The position numbers and the translations under genes were made by a program. A DNA stretch of 63,688 bases, counting the filler, from Pseudomonadota bacterium (GTDB lineage: Bacteria > Bdellovibrionota_F > JAHFAK01 > JBDREC01), in NCBI GenBank assembly GCA_043820105.1. It is 6 parts of 6 records of this genome, joined end to end, with 100 filler letters (N's around TTAATTAATTAA, not from the genome) between each part and the next. Parts side by side here need not be neighbours in the genome. Positions count along the whole stretch, not along the records: positions 56,902 to 63,688 come from JBDREC010000100.1; 5 more parts are not named here. One strand, written 5' to 3'. The notes below the pieces were generated by a model. It was not told the DNA's origin. It saw nothing but the letters and a program-made list of their open reading frames with translations, and made no database searches. Position 1 is the stretch's first letter, and each line of letters opens with the position of its first letter. Of this stretch, positions 9,303-63,688 are shown in pieces.

Positions 9303-9432
9303 CATCATAATAAAGGAAATAAAAGTTTTTTTAATAGCACTCCCAAGTTAGTCGGTTTTACTGGCTAACGAAGATGCTCCCCAACTCTACCCTTTTATCC
9401 TGCAACATGGTTTTGTTGCAGGATTTTTTTTT
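9303..9432 (+). ncRNA. Candidate orphan small RNA
   Basis: TTGACA (9267-9272) N18 TATAAG promoter, internal hairpin GTTAGTCGG/CTGGCTAAC, intrinsic terminator, no credible ORF. Confidence 0.4.
9397..9432 (+). terminator. Intrinsic terminator
   Basis: 11-bp stem ATCCTGCAACA/TGTTGCAGGAT followed by a T run. Confidence 0.85.
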
Positions 9433-9557
9433 GAGATTATTCCCAAATTGATGTCTAGCTGCGTTGGCCGATTAAAATTTAATTTCGCCGTACAGCAGTA
9501 CGCCTCAAATAAATTTTAATCGACCGCCTTGCTATACAGCAATTTGGAAATAATCTC
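9433..9557. repeat. 125-bp palindromic repeat element
   Basis: GAGATTATTCCCAAATTG...CAATTTGGAAATAATCTC ends, nested arms CGATTAAAATTTA/TAAATTTTAATCG, central CGTAC..GTACG. Confidence 0.85.
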
Positions 9558-9592
9558 GAAAATGTTTTCAAAATAGTTTCATTAAGAATTAC

Positions 9593-9735
9593 TAATTAGT
9601 TTCCATCCCGAAATAGCGATTTCCCCGATTGTCATCCTGAATTTATTTCAAGTTCCCTTTGGTATAACTGCATCTGGGGGATGCTGAAACAAGTTCAGCA
9701 TGACGAAAAGTGAATTTTGAGATGAGAACTAATTA
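9593..9735. repeat. REP-like palindromic element (GTCATCCTGAA...TTCAGCATGAC type)
   Basis: Inner GTCATCCTGAATTTATTTCA / TGAAACAAGTTCAGCATGAC and outer TAATTAGTT.CATC / GATG.AACTAATTA; a related half-site lies at 43161-43184. Confidence 0.8.
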
Positions 9736-9758
9736 ATTTTAATCAGCAAGGAAACTGT

Positions 9759-10151
9759 TTATCCGATGAACTCTTCCATGATTGTAGTCTCAGTGATAAG
9801 ACCAACGAGTTTGCCTTTTTCAACAACAGGAAGACCTGAGATTTTATGAGAACTCATTATTTCCGCAGCTTCTTTAAATGTTGTATTTGGAGAGATTGTT
9901 TTCACATCAGTGGTCATAACCTCTTTTACTTTAATCTTTTTTAAAAGCTCAATTTTACTGAAACTCTCATCCAGGCTTAGCATAAGGTATTTTAGAATAT
10001 CCTTGTTAGCAATTATTCCCACCAGAACATCTTTATCAACAACTGGCAATAACTTCAAATCACCTTTTGAAAGAAAATCAAAGGCTACAGAAATAGATTT
10101 TTTAGGAGTTATTGTTGTGATTTTTTTTATCATCCTGTCTTTAACTTTCAT
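9759..10151 (-). CDS. CBS domain pair protein (AcuB-like)
   Basis: Two CBS repeats (LPVVD..LVGII; ISGLPVVEKGKLVGLITE); start placed at MKVKDRM behind a GGGGA RBS. Confidence 0.88.
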   Translation of the reverse strand: MKVKDRMIKKITTITPKKSISVAFDFLSKGDLKLLPVVDKDVLVGIIANKDILKYLMLSLDESFSKIELLKKIKVKEVMTTDVKTISPNTTFKEAAEIMSSHKISGLPVVEKGKLVGLITETTIMEEFIG

Positions 10152-10227
10152 GGTATTTCCCCATTTTATTTTTTCTTTAATAATTTCTACCTTGCTCAAT
10201 TGATACAATCAAGAGAAAAAACAATAA

Positions 10228-10803
10228 TTAATTGCGTTTTGATCTTTTTATTTTTTTATTTTGTTTTATTGCTTTACTCTTTTTAGGCTTGGCTTTATTT
10301 GCTTTGTTGTCAATTTGGTCTTTCATCTTTTGTCTAAATTTAATTCTTTCTTTTAATGGAAGGTTTTGCATTTTTCTATAGTTCTGAATAATATTTTGCT
10401 TTTGCTCAGGAGTCATATTTTTAAAAACTTCCAGATTTCCTTTAATTCTTTCTTTTTCTTTAGGTGAAAGATTTTGCCAAATCTCGTTTCTTTTAATTAA
10501 AATCTTTTTTGTATTTAAGGGCAAAGATGCGAAATGTTGATAATTATCCCTGAACATTCTCTGCTTATATGCTGGCAAATTATTAAACTTATTTAAATTA
10601 GCTTTTAATAAATTTTTTTCAGCTGTTGTAAGCTTTGCAAAAACTTTATACTTTTCTTTTAATTCATTTTTTGCTTCAGCACTTAAATTATTGTACCTTT
10701 CAACATCTTCACCAAGTCCTTTATTTGTAGCATCTTCCTGTGAAGATAAGTTTGCAAAGGAAAGAAAAATTAAAATTATTATGATTTTTATACCTTTACT
10801 CAT
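10228..10803 (-). CDS. DUF3106-like secreted helical-repeat protein
   Basis: Signal peptide and ~18-aa repeats (F/W..L.P..K); last gene of the ECF sigma cluster. Confidence 0.75.
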   Translation of the reverse strand: MSKGIKIIIILIFLSFANLSSQEDATNKGLGEDVERYNNLSAEAKNELKEKYKVFAKLTTAEKNLLKANLNKFNNLPAYKQRMFRDNYQHFASLPLNTKKILIKRNEIWQNLSPKEKERIKGNLEVFKNMTPEQKQNIIQNYRKMQNLPLKERIKFRQKMKDQIDNKANKAKPKKSKAIKQNKKIKRSKRN

Positions 10804-23393: not shown

Positions 23394-23493
23394 NNNNNNN
23401 NNNNNNNNNNNNNNNNNNNNNNNNNNNNNNNNNNNNNTTAATTAATTAANNNNNNNNNNNNNNNNNNNNNNNNNNNNNNNNNNNNNNNNNNNN
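23394..23493. other. Contig linker (N44-TTAATTAATTAA-N44)
   Basis: Artificial all-frame stop spacer; identical linkers at 43016-43115, 45848-45947, 48132-48231 and 56802-56901. Confidence 0.99.
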
Positions 23494-42929: not shown

Positions 42930-43160
42930 ATGAAATTCCCCACGAATATTTCAAAACGGTTTACACCAGTTAAGCAATAATTTAAAGTAATGCTATAATG
43001 AAGTCAAGAAATAAGNNNNNNNNNNNNNNNNNNNNNNNNNNNNNNNNNNNNNNNNNNNNTTAATTAATTAANNNNNNNNNNNNNNNNNNNNNNNNNNNNN
43101 NNNNNNNNNNNNNNNAACTATTTGTAACAAATACTTTATCAGTCTGATAATAACACTTTA

Positions 43161-45847: not shown

Positions 45848-45947
45848 NNNNNNNNNNNNNNNNNNNNNNNNNNNNNNNNNNNNNNNNNNNNTTAATTAAT
45901 TAANNNNNNNNNNNNNNNNNNNNNNNNNNNNNNNNNNNNNNNNNNNN

Positions 45948-48131: not shown

Positions 48132-48231
48132 NNNNNNNNNNNNNNNNNNNNNNNNNNNNNNNNNNNNNNNNNNNNTTAATTAATTAANNNNNNNNNNNNN
48201 NNNNNNNNNNNNNNNNNNNNNNNNNNNNNNN

Positions 48232-55482: not shown

Positions 55483-55528
55483 TTGACAACCGTGTATTTT
55501 TGAAGTATCATTTCATATATGCACGGTT
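55483..55528 (+). promoter_or_regulatory. Sigma70 promoter predicting a leaderless mRNA
   Basis: TTGACA-N17-TATCAT-N7-ATG; inverted repeat AACCGTGTAT / ATGCACGGTT spans the promoter and start codon. Confidence 0.65.
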
Positions 55529-56661
55529 ACATAACAAGACACTTGGAAGAAAAAATTAAAAATCATCTACAGGACTATCCAGTTGTTGCTCTCCTGGGTC
55601 CAAGACAGGTAGGCAAATCCACAACAGCAAAAAAAATAATAAAAGATAACATTTATCTTGATCTAGAATTACCTAGTGACCTTAATAAATTAACAGACGC
55701 TGAAGCTTATTTTGAACAAAACAAAAACAAACTTATTTGCCTTGATGAAATTCAGCAAGCACCAAATATTTTTAAAATAATTAGAGCAATGGTTGATAAA
55801 ACAAATAATGCTGGTCAATTTTTGATATTAGGATCAGCTTCTAGAGATCTTATTAAACAAAGCTCTGAAACATTAGCTGGAAGAATTTCATATTTAGAAT
55901 TAACGCCTTTTAGCATATTAGAAATAAAAAAAGAAAACATTAGAAAGCATTGGAGTCGAGGTGGTTTGCCATTAAGTTTTTTAGCAAAATCCAAGGAATT
56001 AAGCTATAATTGGAGGATCAATTATATTAGATCGTTTTTAGAAAGAGACATCCCACAACTTGGATTCAATATACCAGCCAAAACCCTTCAAAGGTTTTGG
56101 ACAATGCTTGCCCATGTACATGCTCAAACATTAAATGCATCAAAACTAGCAGACTCAATGGGAGTAAGCTCACATACAATAAAATCATATATTGATATTC
56201 TAGAACAAACCTTTTTAGTGAGAACCCTTTTACCATATGAAAAAAACATAAAGAAAAGAATCATTAAATCTCCAAAAGTTTATTTAAGAGATAGTGGCTT
56301 ACTGCATGCTCTGCTTGGAATTGAAGATGAAAACGATTTATTTGGAAATCCTATCTATGGCGCTTCATGGGAAGGTTACTGCATAGAAAACATATTAACA
56401 AACTTAAATAAATATAATGCATACTTCTACAGAACATCACACGGAGCTGAAATTGATTTGATACTTGAAAAAGGTGAAAACAAAATCGCTATTGAATTCA
56501 AATCATCAAAATCACCAAAACTATCAAAAGGTTTTTATTCAAGCTCAAAAGAAATACAACCCACTGACTCTTATATTGTTGCTCCAGTGGATTCAAGTTA
56601 TCCGTATGGAAAAGGTATTACAGTTATAGGGCTTAAGGAATTGATACACAAATATCTTTAA
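55519..56661 (+). CDS. AAA_14/DUF4143 ATPase
   Basis: GPRQVGKST, LDEIQ, SETLAGR, KSPKVYLRDSG and EIDL...IAIEFK (C-terminal PD-(D/E)xK-like) motifs. Confidence 0.93.
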   Translation: MHGYITRHLEEKIKNHLQDYPVVALLGPRQVGKSTTAKKIIKDNIYLDLELPSDLNKLTDAEAYFEQNKNKLICLDEIQQAPNIFKIIRAMVDKTNNAGQFLILGSASRDLIKQSSETLAGRISYLELTPFSILEIKKENIRKHWSRGGLPLSFLAKSKELSYNWRINYIRSFLERDIPQLGFNIPAKTLQRFWTMLAHVHAQTLNASKLADSMGVSSHTIKSYIDILEQTFLVRTLLPYEKNIKKRIIKSPKVYLRDSGLLHALLGIEDENDLFGNPIYGASWEGYCIENILTNLNKYNAYFYRTSHGAEIDLILEKGENKIAIEFKSSKSPKLSKGFYSSSKEIQPTDSYIVAPVDSSYPYGKGITVIGLKELIHKYL

Positions 56662-56735
56662 TCCGTAGGAACTTTCTGGGATAATATTCAAGTATAAAGG
56701 TTCAATTGCCACAAAAAATATAAAAACTACAACAT

Positions 56736-56783
56736 AAAGCACATATTGAGGAGGATGTACTCATCATCCTCAATATGTGCTTT
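56736..56783. terminator. Long hairpin downstream of the ATPase gene
   Basis: AAAGCACATATTGAGGAGGATG-TACT-CATCATCCTCAATATGTGCTTT. Confidence 0.55.
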
Positions 56784-56981
56784 GCAAAAGTTATGTTCAT
56801 GNNNNNNNNNNNNNNNNNNNNNNNNNNNNNNNNNNNNNNNNNNNNTTAATTAATTAANNNNNNNNNNNNNNNNNNNNNNNNNNNNNNNNNNNNNNNNNNN
56901 NATGTTCATTAAGATAGTGCATGATTTAATATTTTACCATTAACATCAGAATATTTCTTTCAAAATCCACTTGCTGTTTAT

Positions 56982-58658
56982 TCACTCTATCAGCGCCTCC
57001 GCCATGCTAATCATCGATTTACTATAAATCGGCCAACGGCCATCCGAAAGTTCGGATGTAAAATGAGGGCGGTTTTTTGATGAAAGTCTTTTTGTTTGAA
57101 GACATTGTGACCTTTCTTGTTGTTCTAAAAATAAAAAATTAAAGGGGGCGAAAAAATCAAAAGAAAAAAGCGATTTGTTGGCGATTTTGATGTTTTTAAA
57201 AAGCAGTTGCAGCACTTGCTTCTTGGTCAAATTATCTATCGTTTTCGCTCTTGGATTATACCCTTCAATGAATTCAGCAACACGGTTTTTATAGTTCTTA
57301 GAGTTCTCTCTTTCAATTGCTCTAACTTCTTGCAGAGCAATGCGTTTCTTTAAATCGTCTTCTTCGGTTTTTAGCGTTTCGCTTTTCTCTCTGTAAACTT
57401 CTTCGCTTAATAAATTATCCAAATACGCATCAGTTAATTTCGATTGTTTTTGAAGCACTATTTTAAGCTTTTCCTGTAGTTTTTCCAACTCATTTTTTGA
57501 GATTTGCTCAATAGCCGGGGATTCCAGTTCAGTCACTGTTGTCCATCGGCTCGATTTTAGTTTATTATTTTTGAGCAAAGTCTCTAAAAGTTCAGCTACC
57601 TGAGATTCGATAATATCTGCTTTTACACATTTATTTTTACATTGGATAAAGCTTGTCTGCGGGCCTCCGCATCTATAATATCTCTGCTTAAATCCTGTTC
57701 TATGATTAGAGATTGAAGAAATTCCTAAATATTTATGATTGCACTTTGTGCAATAAAGAACCCCGGAAAGAGGATACTCACTTGCCCTTCTTTTCCAAAC
57801 AATCTTTTTCTCTTTCAACTTTTCCTGAACAATCGCAAAATCTTCATCACTTATCAAGGGTTGATGCCTGCCCTGTGCAACAATAATCTTCTCCTGTGGA
57901 TTTTTAATATATCTAAAACCTCTTTTTGTTTTTTTGGTTTTATCATACCTTGATTTATTCCAAACAAGCTTACCTGTATAAATTCTATTCTTTAAAATAT
58001 CACTGATAAATTTAGTTCCCAGAATATTATCGTTACGAGTCCTATGGCCTTTTTTAGTCAGATATTCCGTAATACTTCTAATACTTCTGCCGGAAATATA
58101 CATTTTATAAATAGTTTTTACTAATTCAGCTTCTTTTTCGTTTACTTCCAAAAGCTTCTTTTCTTTGTTATAGGCATAACCGCAAGGAGCAAATCTTGCG
58201 CCCTGCCAATTACCTGCTTTTATTCCTTTAACCATTCCGGGGAAAACTCGTTCCGCTAATCTATTTCTTTCAAACTCTGCGAAACTGCCTAACTGTTGAA
58301 GCATTAATTTTCCAGCAGAAGTTGTAGAGTCAAAAGGTTCCGTAGCTGATTTAAAACCAACCTCATAAGAATATAACTTATCCATAAGATTAAGCAAATC
58401 CCTTAAGTTTCTGCTGAACCTGTCAATTTTATAAACTAAAACAAGATCAAATCTTTTTTGTCTAGCATCTTCAAGAAGTTTCTTTAAGGCAGGTCGTTCA
58501 AGCGAATAGCCGCTTATTCCATCATCAGAATAAACTTTATAAATTTCATATCCCTCACGCTCAGCAAAAGATTCTAGATATTCTCTTTGTACTTCTAAGG
58601 AATATCCTTCTTTAACTTGGTCTTCAGTTGAAACTCTTATGTAAATTGAAACTCTCAT
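56982..58658 (-). CDS. Large serine recombinase (resolvase + recombinase + Zn ribbon + coiled coil)
   Basis: YIRVSTEDQ catalytic Ser, DDGISG, RPAL, DRFSRN, AEFER, CTKC..YYRC..C. Confidence 0.95.
   Translation of the reverse strand: MRVSIYIRVSTEDQVKEGYSLEVQREYLESFAEREGYEIYKVYSDDGISGYSLERPALKKLLEDARQKRFDLVLVYKIDRFSRNLRDLLNLMDKLYSYEVGFKSATEPFDSTTSAGKLMLQQLGSFAEFERNRLAERVFPGMVKGIKAGNWQGARFAPCGYAYNKEKKLLEVNEKEAELVKTIYKMYISGRSIRSITEYLTKKGHRTRNDNILGTKFISDILKNRIYTGKLVWNKSRYDKTKKTKRGFRYIKNPQEKIIVAQGRHQPLISDEDFAIVQEKLKEKKIVWKRRASEYPLSGVLYCTKCNHKYLGISSISNHRTGFKQRYYRCGGPQTSFIQCKNKCVKADIIESQVAELLETLLKNNKLKSSRWTTVTELESPAIEQISKNELEKLQEKLKIVLQKQSKLTDAYLDNLLSEEVYREKSETLKTEEDDLKKRIALQEVRAIERENSKNYKNRVAEFIEGYNPRAKTIDNLTKKQVLQLLFKNIKIANKSLFSFDFFAPFNFLFLEQQERSQCLQTKRLSSKNRPHFTSELSDGRWPIYSKSMISMAEALIE
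57041..57197 (-). repeat. Left arm of a 157-bp inverted repeat (inside the recombinase 3' end)
   Basis: Reverse complement of 63393-63549 with one mismatch; outer end is CATCCGAA-AG-TTCGGATG. Confidence 0.95.
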
Positions 58659-58670
58659 ATTTTAAATTCA

Positions 58671-59174
58671 TTAATTCTGGCAACTAGTTGTAATCATAGA
58701 AGTAACAATATCGTTTAATAATCTTCCCCTAAAATTCACAAGCACAATATTTCGATGTTTATTAATTTCTGCAATGCATTCTTTAGAAATAAATCCTTCC
58801 TCCTGAGGAGCATAGATTATTAGAGCGGTATCATCTTTTTTTATTAATAGGATCTCACCCAAACAAGAAGATATGGTTTTCCAATGAGCAAGAAATAGAG
58901 AAAAATTTTCTGCTTTTCTTAATTCTCTAGTAGTAATTTGAGTTATATTACTTTCACTAAACAGTTTAGAATCAATCAAAAGACTACTTAAAGAAGAATA
59001 CGCATCATTTTCTGCAAATATAGCAATCTTTCTAGAAGCCAATCCCTTCCCCAATCTAAGTAATGCTGGCGATATTCCTTTAACCCATCGACATATTTCA
59101 ACAATGACAGCAAAAATTACAATGACTGTCGACACGTAACCAAGAAAATTCAAAATTTTCAAAACAGTATCCAT
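58671..59174 (-). CDS. Putative CBASS effector: N-terminal TM helix plus small Rossmann-like domain (possibly NARF-like)
   Basis: Start at MDTVLK behind GGAGG (167 aa); TM helix, then alternating beta/alpha segments (KIAIFA, LFLAHW, ALIIYAP, VLVNFRGRLLND); directly follows the CD-NTase. Confidence 0.6.
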   Translation of the reverse strand: MDTVLKILNFLGYVSTVIVIFAVIVEICRWVKGISPALLRLGKGLASRKIAIFAENDAYSSLSSLLIDSKLFSESNITQITTRELRKAENFSLFLAHWKTISSCLGEILLIKKDDTALIIYAPQEEGFISKECIAEINKHRNIVLVNFRGRLLNDIVTSMITTSCQN

Positions 59175-59196
59175 AATAACCTCCCAGTCAATAAAA

Positions 59197-60072
59197 TTAA
59201 GAAGCGAATTTATTTCCAAATAATTTTCTCCATAATTTAACAGATTCATCTGTATCTTCAGATTTTAAAGCTTCACTAGCGATATCTAAACTATTTTTTA
59301 TTTCACTCATAAAGCTTTTGAATTCATAAAAACTCCACCGTTTTGCGACATTAACAGATGGATATCCCGGATCATTAATGACTGGCACTTTGCCTAATTC
59401 TAAATACGATTTGTAAGTACTATAAATATTATAGAAAATATCTCTTATCGCAACGCCGTACGATTCGGGTTCTGATAAAATACATTGAGACAATAAACTT
59501 TCAATTATGTAAGAATTTGGCTTAGAACTTTCGCTAGACAATCTATCACGCCAAAACTTAATTATTTTAATTAAATGGATATAATATCCTTCTGTATTTT
59601 TATTCCTATCAGTCGAAAACTCAATCTGATTTTTAGGATGCGTAGCTACCCAAGTCTTAGCTTCTCGATCAGGAATCCATAACGGTCCAGAACGATTCGA
59701 GATTGGAGTAGAAGGAACAACATCCAAACTAAATCCGTTTTTATGAATCACATTAACTGATCTTCCCTGAGGTTTTATTTTAGAGTATTGATTCTGGAGG
59801 GAAGCCTGCAACCAAGCTAAAACAACCTCAGGAGCTGTATTATTTCGATCTAAGTCAATTATAAGAATAATATCAACATCCTTAATGTCATTAATCGCTG
59901 TATCTCTAGCATAAGAACCAGACAAAAAAGTCTCTGGATTGGCTTTTGAAATCTCATCATCTTTAGCTAAAAAATCTCTGATTTCTTCATGTGATTTTTT
60001 AGCTAATTTTACATCTTTATAATCCGGCTCGATATTTTTTAGTAATCCTTTAAAATATGTTGTCATTTCCAT
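59197..60072 (-). CDS. cGAS/DncV-like nucleotidyltransferase (CD-NTase, SMODS)
   Basis: LSGSYARDTAI..IKDVDII, QGRSV, LDVVP, LWIPD...W..THP, IIKFWR, SYIIE and WRKLFG.KF motifs; start at MEMTT behind GGAGG (291 aa). Confidence 0.9.
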   Translation of the reverse strand: MEMTTYFKGLLKNIEPDYKDVKLAKKSHEEIRDFLAKDDEISKANPETFLSGSYARDTAINDIKDVDIILIIDLDRNNTAPEVVLAWLQASLQNQYSKIKPQGRSVNVIHKNGFSLDVVPSTPISNRSGPLWIPDREAKTWVATHPKNQIEFSTDRNKNTEGYYIHLIKIIKFWRDRLSSESSKPNSYIIESLLSQCILSEPESYGVAIRDIFYNIYSTYKSYLELGKVPVINDPGYPSVNVAKRWSFYEFKSFMSEIKNSLDIASEALKSEDTDESVKLWRKLFGNKFAS

Positions 60073-60076
60073 TGTT

Positions 60077-61372
60077 TTAATCCTCCTTAATTTGAATATC
60101 TGTCGGCAGCACTGAACTCTCTGGAAATGCATCTTCATTAGGTTCAAGACCGTACTGCTTTCTTAATGCACCTTCAAAGTTGCCACAAGCTGGACATTCT
60201 TCATCTTTACAGAAATCCACCCCATACCAACGTAAAACAGTCATGGCTGTTGCTTCATCACTTAATGGCGGCCATGATGCATATTGTGTATTTGGCTCAG
60301 GTCTATTTATCCAAAAATACCAATTTGCTGAAAGATCTTTATCCAATATATGCAATGTTGAATCTTTATTTTTTATTAACTCCTGCAAAGCTAACTTTGA
60401 AGTCATGGTTCCAATAGGCTCAACATCTATAGATAATCCTGGTTCTACAGGCACATTTCTATCAGAATATGCTATATCACTAGCATTGGTATTAGATGAA
60501 ACCTCTTGATCTGTCTCTACATCAGGCATACCTAATAAAAAACAATGATAACAGGCTGTTTCCGTTGGATACACTCGCAGAATCTGTCCACCATATGCTC
60601 TACGGAAAGCTCCGGGAAAAAACATTGTCTTTTTTTGCTCCAAACCAATTCTATTGATTAAAAGTTTACTTTCTCGATTATCGGTAGCACATATAATTAA
60701 ATCAACACTTTTCGCTATTTCTAACAACTTAGTTCTATTTTGTTCATCTGCTTTTATAGGATAGGTAGATACTTTAACCTTAGGATTCTTTTCTAATAAT
60801 AAATCTCTAGCAACTACTACTTTTTTTCTCCCAATGTGAGACAACCCAGCCTGATGTCGACAAATATTACCAACTTCAAGCCTATCAGGATCTACTAAAT
60901 GAAAATTGCCAACCCCACATTTAACTAAATCAATTGAAATATGAATACCACCAGTCCCTAAGCCAAATATTAAGACCGAAGTATCTTTTAATAAATTTGT
61001 CTCAATAAAGCCTCGCTGTCTAGCGGAAAGTTCATGTCCTATATCAACAATACAGGTTTTTATTTCCTCCTTTTCCTCTGGGCCTTTATTGATATACGAT
61101 ACTACTTTATATTTATCACCAGAAGGAGCTATATAATCGTATTTTTTGGTATCATCAACCTGTATTAATTGCACTACCAGAAAATACTCACTGCTATTTG
61201 TTTCTCCAATCACCACAGCGCCATATACTTCCTTTGGGTTTTGGAATATCCCTAACGAGTTTAATGAATAAGCATCTCCTTCATCCCATTCAGAAAAAAT
61301 ACATGGCAAAACCTTATTATCATTCAGTTTCTTCCAATTAACATTTAAATACTCAGACGGTATTGTGATCAT
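60077..61372 (-). CDS. E1-like ThiF adenylation enzyme with a ~110-aa N-terminal extension
   Basis: GLGTGG, DPDRLEVGNICRH, CATDN, and Zn ligands CYHC and CPAC. Confidence 0.9.
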   Translation of the reverse strand: MITIPSEYLNVNWKKLNDNKVLPCIFSEWDEGDAYSLNSLGIFQNPKEVYGAVVIGETNSSEYFLVVQLIQVDDTKKYDYIAPSGDKYKVVSYINKGPEEKEEIKTCIVDIGHELSARQRGFIETNLLKDTSVLIFGLGTGGIHISIDLVKCGVGNFHLVDPDRLEVGNICRHQAGLSHIGRKKVVVARDLLLEKNPKVKVSTYPIKADEQNRTKLLEIAKSVDLIICATDNRESKLLINRIGLEQKKTMFFPGAFRRAYGGQILRVYPTETACYHCFLLGMPDVETDQEVSSNTNASDIAYSDRNVPVEPGLSIDVEPIGTMTSKLALQELIKNKDSTLHILDKDLSANWYFWINRPEPNTQYASWPPLSDEATAMTVLRWYGVDFCKDEECPACGNFEGALRKQYGLEPNEDAFPESSVLPTDIQIKED

Positions 61373-61548
61373 TGTCCAAACATATCCGCTTCTTCTGCAG
61401 TAATATTCAAGCCTGGTGCAGCAGAATCTGCAGATGAAACTGCTACTATTGTTTTTTTAGTCTTATCATAAACCAACTTATTACGTCCTGGTCGACGTGC
61501 AGCAATTGCTTGCATTGCTTCACGAATTTTTTCTTTTTGAGAATCCAT
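61369..61548 (-). CDS. 59-aa protein missing from the ORF track; candidate ubiquitin/Pup-like modifier
   Basis: MDSQKEKIREAMQAIAARRPGRNKLVYDKTKKTIVAVSSADSAAPGLNITAEEADMFGQ*; GGAGG..AGGA RBS, starts 7 nt after the E2 stop, and its TGA overlaps the E1 ATG (ATGA). Confidence 0.8.
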   Translation of the reverse strand: MDSQKEKIREAMQAIAARRPGRNKLVYDKTKKTIVAVSSADSAAPGLNITAEEADMFGQ

Positions 61549-61555
61549 ATTAATC

Positions 61556-62008
61556 CTATTCCTCCCTCATAGTCGCTACAAAATCATTTATAGTTTGTCC
61601 CGTAGCCAAGTGTTGCTCAAAAGCTTCAAACCATAACATTATTTTTAACATAACTTTATTCAAAGTAATACCACTATGCCATCGACTTTGTCTCCAATGA
61701 CAGATTTGGACTTCCCTGCTACTGCTAGGTTCTAATGTATGCATCTTATGAGATACACCATAACTAACTATTGATGTCCCATTATAGCCAATGAGTGGAT
61801 TTGGCTTATGCACATAAACAGAAGGACATTGATAAGGATAATTAGTCGGCAATCGACACCAAACCGTATAGCTCCTTCCACCACTAGAATTATAATCACC
61901 AAAAATATAATAAAAATTTCCTTGGGGGTAATACTTTACAAAGTATTGTGACATCCCATCTCTTTTTAAAATCTGATTTTCTAGATTTAATCTATCCAAC
62001 AATGTCAT
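61556..62008 (-). CDS. Stand-alone prokaryotic E2 (UBC-fold) protein
   Basis: LPTNYPYQCPSVYV (PxxYPxxxP), H...QICHW...W..GITL..V..KI.LW with a putative catalytic Cys; start at MTLLDRL behind AAGGAAG (150 aa). Confidence 0.8.
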   Translation of the reverse strand: MTLLDRLNLENQILKRDGMSQYFVKYYPQGNFYYIFGDYNSSGGRSYTVWCRLPTNYPYQCPSVYVHKPNPLIGYNGTSIVSYGVSHKMHTLEPSSSREVQICHWRQSRWHSGITLNKVMLKIMLWFEAFEQHLATGQTINDFVATMREE

Positions 62009-63248
62009 TGTCTCTTCCTTTAAGCTTATGATAACAATCAACAATCTGGTCTAACTTTAAAAGTGATAAACTGTTATTCTTCACTTCAAGCTCCGTTGAT
62101 TTTCCTATAGCTCTATCCAGCCAATCAACTTGTAATATTTTATGTGGCCACTTATCATCTATAGCAAATGCAATATATTGCTCATTTTTAACCGGCACAA
62201 CAAAAATATGTCCAAATGAGGTGTGATACACTTCTATATCTTTCGACAATATTTGTCTAAGATCTTTTATTGCATTTAATATCGTCCTTTCTGATATTAT
62301 TTTTAGAGAATTTCCCTCATTAGCAATAACTCTACCAAGTGGCTCTACTGGAATTTTAATATTATCTAGATTAAATAGCGAATAGGAGTGCAAATTTTGT
62401 TCCGACATTAAATTACTTTCAACTAAAATTTCTCTAATAGGACTCACTCCTTTTAAAACTATTAGGCACGCATCAACAGGACTAGTATCAGGAAAATTCT
62501 GATAAGCAAAAGGATTAATGCGAACTATACGTTCTTTTTTAGAAACGTTAACAAAAGAAACAATAAACTCCGCCATTTCATTAAAATTATTCCTATTAGC
62601 TAACCGCTTTATTCTACTGATATCACCAGAGCTAGGAGACTCTAGCCCAAGATTATGATGTGAATGCCAGTCACCAAAGTATCTTAGCCCCCATTTATCG
62701 CTTAATTCTGTACTAATTTTAACCAGATAATCTACATCTAGTCTAAAATGTGCATTATCCCTAATAGCTTTTGGTCCAGCTTTTGTAGCTAGGTAAATAA
62801 TAGGAATGTCACCCCAAATTCCAAATAAATCACCGCCAGTTTCAACTTTCCAGGACGAACTTTCTAAAGCTATAGCCTGCAACTCAGATTCATAAATAGC
62901 TAAAACAGTCGATGGGGAACCCCTTTTTACTTTACCTATTTCAAGTTCTTCAACAACTTTAACTGGATCAGATTGAGTTAAAACAAATTTAAATATTTTT
63001 GAGAAAACAGGGTGCTTTTCAATCCAGGTTTTAACATTCTTTGGCATTTCTAAATTATCCTGATTTAAAATATCTTTTGAAATATTAAGCAATTCAGATA
63101 TTCGCTGAATAAGATCTTGACTTGGTAAACGACGTCCTTTCTCAATATCAACCAAATAAGCAGCTGAAATTTCTAATTTTCTAGCAAACTCCCTTAAAGA
63201 AATTTTATTTTTTATTCGTTCTTTTTTTATTTTTTCACCAATCTGCAT
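61992..63248 (-). CDS. XRE-HTH / JAB (MPN+) metallopeptidase fusion with an extra C-terminal domain
   Basis: N-terminal XRE HTH (SLREFARKLEISAAYLVDIEKGRRLPS); JAB motif ETGG...GDWHSHHNLGLESPSSGD. Confidence 0.88.
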   Translation of the reverse strand: MQIGEKIKKERIKNKISLREFARKLEISAAYLVDIEKGRRLPSQDLIQRISELLNISKDILNQDNLEMPKNVKTWIEKHPVFSKIFKFVLTQSDPVKVVEELEIGKVKRGSPSTVLAIYESELQAIALESSSWKVETGGDLFGIWGDIPIIYLATKAGPKAIRDNAHFRLDVDYLVKISTELSDKWGLRYFGDWHSHHNLGLESPSSGDISRIKRLANRNNFNEMAEFIVSFVNVSKKERIVRINPFAYQNFPDTSPVDACLIVLKGVSPIREILVESNLMSEQNLHSYSLFNLDNIKIPVEPLGRVIANEGNSLKIISERTILNAIKDLRQILSKDIEVYHTSFGHIFVVPVKNEQYIAFAIDDKWPHKILQVDWLDRAIGKSTELEVKNNSLSLLKLDQIVDCYHKLKGRDNDIVG

Positions 63249-63288
63249 GGGGAAATGTTATCACTGTTAGCTAACGATGTCAACATTT
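63249..63288 (-). promoter_or_regulatory. Leaderless sigma70 promoter overlapped by a 36-bp palindromic operator
   Basis: Minus strand TTGACA-N17-TAACAT (extended TG)-N6-ATG; palindrome AAATGTTatCActGTTAGCTAACgaTGtcAACATTT at 63253-63288. Confidence 0.8.
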
Positions 63289-63392
63289 TTATTTACTAGG
63301 GTGTTAAAAGCTCAGAATAAGTCTACGGGTGGGCGGGGAATATTTGCTTTTTCTGCGTCAAAGACGTGCGGACTGCCTATAAGGCTGGACGC

Positions 63393-63549
63393 AAAAACAT
63401 CAAAATCGCCAACAAATCGCTTTTTTCTTTTGATTTTTTCGCCCCATTTAATTTTTTATTTTTAGAACAACAAGAAAGGTCACAATGTCTTCAAACAAAA
63501 AGACTTTCATCAAAAAACCGCCCTCATTTTACATCCGAACTTTCGGATG
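63393..63549 (+). repeat. Right arm of the 157-bp inverted repeat (duplicate of the recombinase 3' segment)
   Basis: Encodes KNIKIANKSLFSFDFFAPFNFLFLEQQERSQCLQTKRLSSKNRPHFTSELSD, identical to the recombinase C-terminal segment. Confidence 0.95.
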
Positions 63550-63688
63550 ACCTCTTGCTGAGGCTCTACAATGTGCTTTTTTCTTACTTTTCTACCTTGA
63601 ATTGACTTAATGATGCACCGCCCCGCCGTCGCTCCCTGAACGGTCGCTTTGGCGGGGCTCCGTGAGTGATGTTGCACCGTTCGCCTCA

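Follow-up and report, generated by a model that had tools for sequence, protein, structure and literature searches.

A type II-like CBASS operon with separately encoded E1 and E2 proteins and a JAB peptidase joined to a helix-turn-helix domain

Introduction

The operon described here raises the question whether a set of separately encoded E1, E2 and JAB proteins, next to a nucleotidyltransferase of the cGAS/DncV-like kind (CD-NTase), merges two bacterial conjugation designs or is a variant of one of them. It lies at the end of a stretch of 63,688 nucleotides (referred to below as the window, meaning the whole stretch of DNA that was analysed) from the genome of Pseudomonadota bacterium (GTDB lineage Bacteria; Bdellovibrionota_F; JAHFAK01; JBDREC01; assembly GCA_043820105.1), and it encodes, in this order, a helix-turn-helix (HTH)-JAB protein, an E2, a protein of 59 amino acids (aa), an E1, a CD-NTase and a membrane effector with one transmembrane helix (1TM). 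The type II form of the antiphage signalling system that is based on cyclic oligonucleotides (CBASS) is the model for ubiquitin-like conjugation in bacterial immunity, and two main classes of it are distinguished in the available text of a 2026 paper (PMC12948482), one with an E1-E2 fusion and a JAB peptidase (E1E2/JAB) and one with an E2 only. In the accessible parts of the preprints on Cap2 (10.1101/2022.03.31.486616), Bil and Bub (PMC11601596), Cap2 is described as a fusion and the Bil and Bub systems as having separate enzymes.

A first-pass annotation of the window had described six co-oriented, packed or overlapping genes, and the open reading frame (ORF) listing and the reading of the sequence confirm their positions and their order, as well as the FGNKFAS end that had been given for the CD-NTase. 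Its assignment of the operon to the CBASS type agrees with the SMODS, PADLOC cyclase, PADLOC 1TM effector, JAB and ThiF calls, its view that E1 and E2 are separate is borne out by distinct genes in the window and in all 49 related loci described below, and the fusion of the JAB to a DNA-binding domain is seen in the HTH_3 match (9.7e-13) on the 418-aa HTH-JAB protein. Its central proposal, that the locus merges the Bil and CBASS designs, does not stand, as no β-grasp ubiquitin-like protein (Ubl) is found and the E1 has a single ThiF domain, not the tandem IAD-AAD-CYS arrangement. From the sequence comparisons presented here, the operon is instead a conserved type II-like CBASS lineage. In its working it resembles type II CBASS of the E1E2/JAB class, without qualifying for that class in full. 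It is probable that the functions of Cap2 are divided in this operon among the E2, the E1 and, in the clade of the window, the 59-aa module of E1, and that these act together with a Cap3-like JAB that carries an HTH and a C-terminal domain.

The lineage, which occurs in at least 46 species genomes over several phyla, is a conserved and unstudied variant. Here Cap2 has in effect been dissected by nature, E1 and E2 being made as separate proteins in the way that Atg7 and Atg3/Atg10 are in eukaryotes, and the lineage allows the JAB to be examined as an activator and not only as a brake. A full-text literature search for an already described CBASS subtype with separate E1 and E2 found none, and in the same literature no description was found of a CBASS with an HTH-JAB protein; the data of Burroughs 2015 (NAR) and Millman 2020 (Nat Microbiol) may include members, because the Bradyrhizobium effector scores 851 bits with PDLC00744, a PADLOC model for CBASS effectors.

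Conservation of the operon and exchange of its effectors

A scan with the E2 alignment, covering one genome per GTDB species, gave 49 related loci, from Omnitrophota, Bradyrhizobium, Mesorhizobium, Alphaproteobacteria, Acidobacteriota, Planctomycetota and others. The first-pass annotation had proposed conservation of gene order in homologous loci as a check, and the order JAB, E2, E1, CD-NTase is indeed kept in 46 of the 49. A JAB-family gene adjoins the E2 gene in all 49 loci and a CD-NTase gene is present in 46; the three loci that lack it are two at contig ends (L038 and L051) and one with a different gene order (L052). The effector of these operons is of the Cap4-like nuclease-SAVED type in 39 loci, 1TM in three, TIR-SAVED in two and NucC in one, with none found in four, and the three loci with the 1TM type of the window are L006, L039 and L041. 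The effectors are thus swapped around a constant core of sensor and regulators, which is the CBASS pattern. In the window, the effector is matched by the PADLOC models '1TM' (PDLC00664, 1.5e-60) and C3a59 (7.4e-49).

The names given to these genes in databases are generic. In RefSeq, the operon on plasmid pBb323S2b of Bradyrhizobium barranii (L068) reads 'Mov34/MPN/PAD-1 family protein', 'hypothetical protein', 'ThiF family adenylyltransferase', 'hypothetical protein' and 'dsDNA nuclease domain-containing protein'; neither the names of the Prokaryotic Genome Annotation Pipeline nor NCBIfam mark the control genes as CBASS, and the profiles of PADLOC and NCBIfam match the E1 and the JAB weakly and the E2 not at all. 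The generic names, and the best scores of the E1 with ThiF and MoeB, would fit a locus that is no defence system, with E1, E2 and JAB forming a housekeeping sulfur-carrier or regulatory set and the nucleotidyltransferase being unrelated. This is extremely improbable, considering that E2, E1 and JAB are tightly linked to the CD-NTase in 46 of the 49 loci, that a cyclic-nucleotide-sensing CBASS effector (SAVED nucleases, TIR-SAVED, NucC or 1TM) is present in 45, that there is no ThiS/MoaD gene and that the distribution is sparse and patchy.

In the locus with the different order (L052), the E1 gene is followed by the JAB gene and then by a distant E2 (36% identity), without a CD-NTase; the locus is possibly related to the E1/E2/JAB set but not part of CBASS.

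The C-terminal tail of the CD-NTase

The CD-NTase of the window is matched by SMODS of Pfam (4.9e-28), by the PADLOC cyclase model PDLC00822 (1.1e-84) and by CBASS_cyclase_b of NCBIfam (4e-34), and the CBASS cyclase models of NCBIfam score 118 and 108 bits, which is below their cutoffs of 200. In the available text of the Ledvina preprint (10.1101/2022.03.31.486616), the type II CD-NTases are described as having a conserved C-terminus, the E1 site of Cap2 holds the very end of E. cloacae CdnD (...KTGRFA) in adenylated form, and the cut that Cap3 makes in a CD-NTase-GFP fusion falls exactly behind the final residue of the CD-NTase.

Among the 46 CD-NTases of the related loci, 38 end with ...[FL]G-x(1-3)-[FL]-G plus exactly one residue, the family form being ...LFGSTFG, two end at the Gly, two are unreadable, and the remaining four, all in the clade of the window, have F-[S/V/S/E] followed by 2-4 residues. 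The tail of the window CD-NTase is ...LFGNKFA-S, and that of L076, from an Omnitrophota genome, is ...KFS-LPI. The FGNKFAS end had initially been taken to speak against conjugation of the CD-NTase; this argument fails, as the proven Cap2 substrate CdnD ends with ...GRFA and the family tails are ...LFGSTFG plus 0-1 residue. The tail looks like the known type II substrate tail, and its adenylation is predicted here from this resemblance. Most members extend one residue past the Gly, and the JAB would therefore have to trim the tail before adenylation. It would then be an activator in addition to a possible deconjugase.

The E1 and E2 proteins

The E1 has one ThiF domain in its 431 residues (Pfam, 1.6e-33). 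When the profile of the fused form of E1, which is the common form in the related loci (see below), is compared with the PDB, the best scores are obtained with ThiF and MoeB (E ~1e-16, best 8e-17), followed by UBA5 and MccB, and Cap2 is found at 1.5e-7. The invariant cysteines C274, C277, C393 and C396 align with the zinc site of ThiF. In the crossover loop, taken as the region that starts behind the first CxxC zinc motif and runs to the EPGLS motif, a cysteine occurs in none of 39 sequences, and the sequence [IVL]AY[SA]D is present in all 39, with Tyr302 and Asp304 being invariant. For comparison, the catalytic cysteine of the E1 of E. cloacae Cap2 is C548, which is required (10.1101/2022.03.31.486616, in its available text), and, in the accessible part of PMC11601596, Bub E1s are without a crossover-loop cysteine, the sole invariant residue of the loop being a tyrosine that forms a Ubl~Tyr oxyester. 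The equivalence of this loop with the C548 site of Cap2 is inferred from the ThiF-family architecture and not from a residue-level alignment; Tyr302 is a candidate counterpart of C548 and of Y370 of BubC. By analogy with the Bub E1s, the E1 may use Tyr302, or the cysteine of E2 may attack the adenylate directly.

The AlphaFold2 (AF2) model of a fused E1 has a mean predicted local distance difference test (pLDDT) score of 70.4 and consists of an N-terminal module, then a beta-rich domain (residues 64-170) and then the adenylation domain. An Atg7-like nature of the N-terminal E1 domain was considered and is not claimed: in the full-length Foldseek alignments, which span 462 columns for Cap2 and 473-485 columns for Atg7, the root-mean-square deviations (rmsd) are 12-23 Å.

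The E2 has no match in Pfam, PADLOC or NCBIfam. Its homologues form 122 protein clusters of 85-160 aa, all but six of them of 147-160 aa, and none was found among proteins of 264-2000 aa, a negative that is weak evidence by the search tool's own note. Cys103-His104-Trp105, in the motif QICHWR, is invariant, with Cys103 being present in 30 of 30 aligned sequences. The AF2 model of E2 (pLDDT 92.2) gives E2-family chains for 50 of the 50 matches listed by Foldseek, with probability 1.00 and TM ~0.5, none of them reaching E<=0.001. In the VIA search, chain 8yjy_B, which is the E2 in the CdnG-E2 complex from Serratia, ranks first with Z 10.6 and rmsd 4.3 at 131 aligned residues, and canonical E2s tie with it (Z 10.6-9.1, ~110 residues aligned). 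The E2 domain of Cap2 is absent from the 50 matches listed in either fold search, which is no evidence of a difference. The model confirms that the E2 is a real stand-alone E2 of the UBC fold with Cys103 as candidate catalytic residue; this role is assigned from the invariance of Cys103 within the UBC-fold model and not from residue-by-residue placement against a known catalytic cysteine.

The 59-aa protein as the detached N-terminal module of E1

The small gene between E2 and E1 had been put forward as a candidate modifier. The 59-aa protein has no match in Pfam, PADLOC or NCBIfam, and an ESM Atlas look-up gave no usable match; its origin is apparent from the related operons, where in 40 of the 49 loci the same sequence forms, in frame, the first ~62 residues of an E1 of ~485 aa. 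Its homology to this part of E1 speaks against the modifier assignment. The fused junction reads ...ALNITADDADMF-[G/A]-[V/A]xTLSSxWL, and a clean split at exactly this point is found in seven loci (window, L005, L006, L012, L013, L054 and L076), the split being confined to the clade of the window. In the first five of these, the peptide ends with ...ADMF plus 1-8 residues and the E1 starts with MI[TI]I..., and in L054, from a metagenome, the peptide ends exactly with ...DADMF. Three loci in which the E1 is broken into several pieces (L015, L044 and L053) were left out of this count. In the AF2 model of the fused E1, the module comprises a helix (residues 5-21), a hairpin (residues 27-42) and a tail (residues 45-62) with pLDDT <50. 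On the evidence of homology and model, the 59-aa ORF does not encode a β-grasp Ubl and is a detached piece of E1. In the tail, I49, A54, D55, M56 and F57 are invariant in 39 of 39 sequences. When the 59-aa protein and the window E1 were predicted as a complex, with 39-row alignments for each, the median score was 0.26 against a mark of 0.32, without controls.

The arrangement of stop and start codons varies among the split loci (an ATGA overlap, TAA-G-ATG or a 20-nt overlap), and the split is therefore considered to be inherited and tolerated, being neither a sequencing error nor a programmed frameshift; the latter is ruled out by the seven split loci, which have no common slippery sequence and have differing stop and start codons. 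The same evidence bears on the reading that the small ORF and the E1 result from a frameshift, a sequencing error or decay of a fused gene in a pseudogenised operon. The contig is short (6.8 kb) and belongs to a draft assembly of 113 contigs, and broken E1 genes do occur in related loci from long-read metagenome-assembled genomes (MAGs), namely the three mentioned above; this reading is nevertheless very improbable, given the same split point in seven loci with differing junctions, the intact state of all other reading frames, the ribosome site ahead of the small ORF and the large number of stand-alone homologues.

These stand-alone homologues were found with a profile of the module, which gives 141 matches at E<=0.001, and 47 at E<=1e-10, among 1.84 billion representatives. 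Truncated E1 genes account for some of the matches, and long repetitive proteins that match spuriously for a few (e.g. P0149); many are stand-alone proteins of 50-75 aa, having the core AM..IA.RRPG..RLVYDK...TIV.V and often ending exactly with ...DADM[F/I]. A Pfam search at E<=1 with 28 stand-alone homologues gave chance-level matches only, and a PHROGs search with module homologues gave none. A metagenome scan with the module gave 10 loci. Two of these, L054 and L055, are the same operon; L060 (1.5 kb) is without a scored ORF; and the other seven (L056-L059 and L061-L063) encode small homologues that lack the acidic tail and have no E1, E2 or JAB nearby. Five of these homologues (L058, L059, L061, L062 and L063) sit among phage-type replication genes, the neighbours being a DnaB-like helicase, a DNA polymerase and exonuclease, methyltransferases, thymidylate synthase and polynucleotide kinase, and the neighbourhoods of L056 and L057 have PHROG matches of unknown function only. 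Four viral contigs of IMG/VR (L064-L067) also encode module homologues. The 59-aa protein of the window shares 57% identity over 46 residues with a 50-aa protein in L057, which is found at 6.4e-11 in the library search, and a tblastn search with a phage-type homologue against 50,697 GenBank phage records gave no match. That phages mimic the module is suggested by these sequences as a lead only, and the module and its phage homologues would then be a possible new point of phage counter-defence.

The small homologues on the metagenome and viral contigs (L056-L059 and L061-L067) are 40-62 aa long and have the core RRPGxSRLVYDKxxRTIV without the acidic tail; in L061-L063, a hydrophobic or Trp-rich segment follows the hairpin.

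A role in peptide conjugation for the small ORF is a minority reading, and it can be formulated in two ways. In the first, the 59-aa protein, or the same segment cut from the fused E1 by the JAB, would be a substrate or pseudosubstrate, that is a conjugated tag or a brake competing with the CD-NTase, and the tail-less phage copies would be decoys. It would be a minimal module of helix, hairpin and tail, whose acidic tail is taken up by the E1 and JAB sites in the manner of the ...TFG tail of the CD-NTase. It is in agreement with this that few parts of the module are as conserved as the ...DADMF(G/A) tail, which is nevertheless predicted to be disordered (residues 45-62 of the fused E1, pLDDT <50), although a disordered linker is also a place where the splitting of a gene is tolerated. 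The split or junction comes right after F-G/A, which mirrors the ...F-G-x end of the CD-NTase, and in the clade whose CD-NTase has lost the Gly the corresponding position of the peptide also varies (G, I, M, Y, L, Y); this covariation, however, goes back to a single evolutionary event. In many stand-alone homologues the sequence stops exactly at ...DADM[F/I], but the C-terminal residue of the stand-alone forms as a whole is unconserved (F, I, D or E, or additional residues), and the tail is missing from some, unlike any known E1 substrate. Precedents exist in the available text of the cited papers: JAB enzymes cut a Ubl-E2 fusion in Bub (PMC11601596) and pre-process BilA, and the E2-binding C-terminal motif of the CdnG of E2-CBASS comprises a helix and a small beta-sheet and ends in Gly (PMC12948482). 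The homologues encoded on phage-like contigs, with their 57% identity to the window protein, also fit. Weighing against this reading are further the absence of a β-grasp fold and the strongly conserved tail of the CD-NTase, which already supplies a substrate, and it is considered unlikely.

In the second formulation, which is judged quite unlikely, the module would be a minimal conjugation element, a helix-hairpin handle, either released by the JAB or separate, whose ...DADMF(G/A) tail competes with or replaces the ...TFG tail of the CD-NTase, with tail-less decoys made by phages to disarm this CBASS lineage and with a tyrosine oxyester on E1 followed by a thioester on E2. In the reading preferred here, with the Cap2 functions divided, the 59-aa module would be a docking or regulatory arm of the E1 that is fused to it in most relatives.

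The HTH-JAB protein and the operon promoter

Besides its HTH_3 match, the HTH-JAB protein is matched in PADLOC by JAB (5.8e-10) and capH (1.2e-7). The Prok-JAB match of Pfam (0.0054, 17 bits) lies below the cutoff of 25, and the JAMM motif is intact. This motif (ETGGDLFG...HSHH...SxGD) and the C-terminal domain of ~170 aa are conserved in the family alignment; the best score in an ESM Atlas look-up of the C-terminal domain was 0.83, too low to be of use. In 29 of the 49 loci the HTH and the JAB form one protein; the HTH is a separate ORF in five and is absent from 15, which are mostly alphaproteobacterial.

Directly upstream of the HTH-JAB gene lies the best sigma-70-like site of the contig (TTGACA-17-TAACAT, 63283-63255, 10/12 matches), and an imperfect palindrome overlaps this predicted promoter. 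Related palindromes, of the form TGACA...GTTAGC|GCTAAC...TGTCA or ...GTATGC|GCATAC..., are present upstream of the HTH-JAB gene in five of the seven loci examined (L006, L012, L009, L021 and L039), while L013 has a different palindrome and L005 none at its HTH-JAB promoter. By analogy, this arrangement is read as a predicted autoregulation of the operon by HTH-JAB, functionally like that by CapH but with the JAB in place of the CapP partner. The JAB peptidase is thus apparently wired to its own promoter, and most CD-NTases of the lineage would need C-terminal trimming.

Proposed mechanism

The gene content, the folds, the motifs, the conservation of gene order, the pattern of fusions and splits and the conservation of the tails are established here, and the biochemical steps are all inferred. 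The HTH domain would bind the palindrome over the operon promoter and keep expression low. The JAB would remove from the tail of the CD-NTase the one to four residues beyond its conserved ...F-G/A, and it would probably also reverse conjugates. The E1 would then adenylate the exposed C-terminus of the CD-NTase, and the acyl group would be passed on via the invariant Tyr302, as in the Bub E1s, or straight to the invariant Cys103 of E2. Conjugation of the CD-NTase to a target by E2 would prime cyclic-nucleotide synthesis on infection, and the nucleotide would activate the 1TM membrane effector, by which the infected cell would be stopped. The operon may travel with the large serine recombinase in a 6.5-kb segment between 169-nt inverted repeats.

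Several observations weigh against this scheme. In the clade of the window, the residue after the Phe of the CD-NTase tail is unconserved (A, S, V, S, E, S) and only ~7 residues follow the last helix of the CD-NTase, and therefore conjugation of the CD-NTase is less secure in this clade than in the rest of the family; the proposed role of the JAB as activator is weakened in the same clade, given the unconserved post-Phe position. The E1 is without the crossover-loop cysteine that Cap2 needs, its scores are no closer to Cap2 than to ThiF, MoeB and UBA5, and the PADLOC E1-E2 models match it weakly (82-100 bits, up to 1.2e-23). The fusion that defines Cap2 is absent, E2 and E1 being separate in every member found. 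In addition, confidence in the model of the module is low (pLDDT 32-63), and the HTH is missing in 15 of the 49 loci, so that autoregulation is not universal.

Comparison with known systems

The closest likeness is with type II CBASS of the E1E2/JAB class, as in V. cholerae DncV and E. cloacae CdnD. Both have a CD-NTase, an effector, an E1 adenylation domain, a cysteine E2 and a JAB, neither has a β-grasp Ubl or an E3, and the ...F-G/A tail of the CD-NTase resembles the ...GRFA tail of CdnD, as given in the available text on the latter. Apart from the separation of E2 and E1, the operon differs in that its E1 has an invariant tyrosine and no cysteine in the crossover loop, in that a 60-aa N-terminal module is present on or beside the E1, in that most CD-NTases extend one residue past the Gly, so that trimming would be needed, and in that the JAB is larger (340-440 aa), with a C-terminal domain and usually an HTH. 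With E2-CBASS, exemplified by Serratia marcescens CdnG-E2, it shares a stand-alone E2 of ~150-160 aa that acts on the CD-NTase (here a predicted activity), whereas E2-CBASS is without E1 and JAB; both are present here, and the CD-NTase is short (291 aa).

The Bil (BilABCD) and Bub systems resemble the operon in encoding E1, E2 and peptidase separately, and in the available text on these systems the JAB may pre-process a C-terminus; the Bub E1, as described there, likewise has an invariant tyrosine in a crossover loop without cysteine. In contrast to both systems, the operon has a CD-NTase and a nucleotide-activated effector, and no β-grasp Ubl gene was matched with Pfam, PADLOC or NCBIfam. The E1 is a single ThiF-domain protein, different from the tandem IAD-AAD-CYS E1 of Bil with its mobile Cys domain. 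The E2 keeps its cysteine, whereas the Bub E2 is described as using a serine, and the DUF6527 protease was not found here with Pfam. The likeness with CapH/CapP, as far as these are covered by the available text, consists of the XRE-type HTH at the head of the operon, a metallopeptidase and a palindromic operator (putative here) over the promoter; the differences are that the HTH is fused to the JAB and not paired with an M78 (CapP) peptidase, and that there is no CapP gene.

Mobile context

Two inverted repeats of 169 nt, 96% complementary to each other, bracket the recombinase gene and the operon (Table 1). The distance between each arm and a contig end is exactly 127 nt, and the repeat may partly be an assembly effect; it was not found elsewhere in the assembly. 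The recombinase (CcrB-like, 9.5e-72, NCBIfam) starts 13 nt downstream of the effector gene, and its CcrB-type homology stops at residue 487, exactly where the left repeat arm begins, from which it follows that its reading frame runs into the repeat. L006, which has 73% DNA identity to the window across the operon, has the same recombinase downstream and, upstream of the operon, an inverted copy of the recombinase tail (40% identity over 62 aa). From these repeats, the 6.5-kb segment is taken to be a mobile or invertible cassette.

The nearest E2s in the GTDB species scan are from Omnitrophota MAGs (76-77% E2 identity), and the distribution of the E2 is sparse, with three positive genomes among 401 sampled Omnitrophota. 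The phylum of the host has four genomes in the searchable set, and the E2 is present only in the window's own. This combination suggests that the operon was transferred horizontally, or else that the 6.8-kb contig was mis-binned. The sparse distribution and the linkage to recombinases and plasmids would fit a mobile defence system.

Two plasmids carry related genes in a setting of insertion elements. On pBb323S2b (L068), an extra TIR-domain gene follows the Cap4-type effector (9315-10328), with an IS630 element and also a gene for a recombinase located upstream. On pREB3 of Acaryochloris marina (L069, 4057-5438), a distant E2 homologue (33% identity) stands behind a 307-aa hypothetical protein and is directly followed by an IS630-like transposase; this may be a cut-down relative of the operon.

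Gene layout and genomic setting

The contig of 6787 nt that carries the operon (56902-63688) has seven co-oriented genes on the minus strand, the six of the operon and that of the large serine recombinase, as found by the ORF listing and the reading of the sequence (Table 1). The ATG of E2 sits 17 nt inside the end of the HTH-JAB gene, and the 59-aa ORF has a GGGAGG ribosome site upstream and a TGA that overlaps the ATG of E1 as ATGA. The longer ORFs previously given for the CD-NTase and the transmembrane protein use upstream TTG/ATG starts that lie outside the family-profile coverage (PADLOC).

Table 1. Features of the operon-bearing contig, in window coordinates
Feature	Position	Strand	Description
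HTH-JAB, 418 aa	61992..63248	-	XRE-type HTH 1-60; JAB/JAMM metallopeptidase ~116-250; conserved C-terminal domain ~250-418
E2, stand-alone, 150 aa	61556..62008	-	UBC fold (model), invariant Cys103-His104 in QICHWR
59-aa ORF	61369..61548	-	Helix, beta-hairpin, conserved acidic tail ...NITAEEADMF-GQ; homologous to E1 N-terminus
E1, stand-alone, 431 aa	60077..61372	-	Beta-rich N-terminal domain, ThiF adenylation domain, four Zn cysteines, AYSD (Tyr302)
CD-NTase, 291 aa (most likely start)	59197..60072	-	SMODS 4.9e-28; ends ...LFGNKFAS
1TM CBASS effector, 167 aa (most likely start)	58671..59174	-	N-terminal transmembrane helix and small soluble domain
Large serine recombinase, 558 aa	56982..58658	-	Resolvase 6.7e-41, Recombinase 7.3e-21, Zn_ribbon_recom 6.3e-9
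Promoter TTGACA-17-TAACAT with TG, and imperfect palindrome, likely HTH operator	63253..63288	-	Sigma-70-like score
169-nt inverted repeat, left arm	57029..57197	.	Covers recombinase codons 487-543
169-nt inverted repeat, right arm	63393..63561	.	Upstream of operon promoter

An Rfam scan of 56000-63688 (E<=0.1) gave no RNA families. In the sequencing-run look-up, one DNA run contained 0.09 of the sampled words, and there was no RNA run among those listed. The assembly consists of 113 contigs, with 3.8 Mb in total and a completeness of 93%, and the window is a chain of such contigs joined by five N44-TTAATTAATTAA-N44 linkers (23394-23493, 43016-43115, 45848-45947, 48132-48231 and 56802-56901). 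Synteny across the linkers is therefore not real, and no gene left of position 56802 belongs to the neighbourhood of the operon. The preceding contig carries, at 55519-56661 on the plus strand, a gene for an AAA_14 / DUF4143 ATPase with a weak nSTAND3 match, and a linker separates this gene from the operon.

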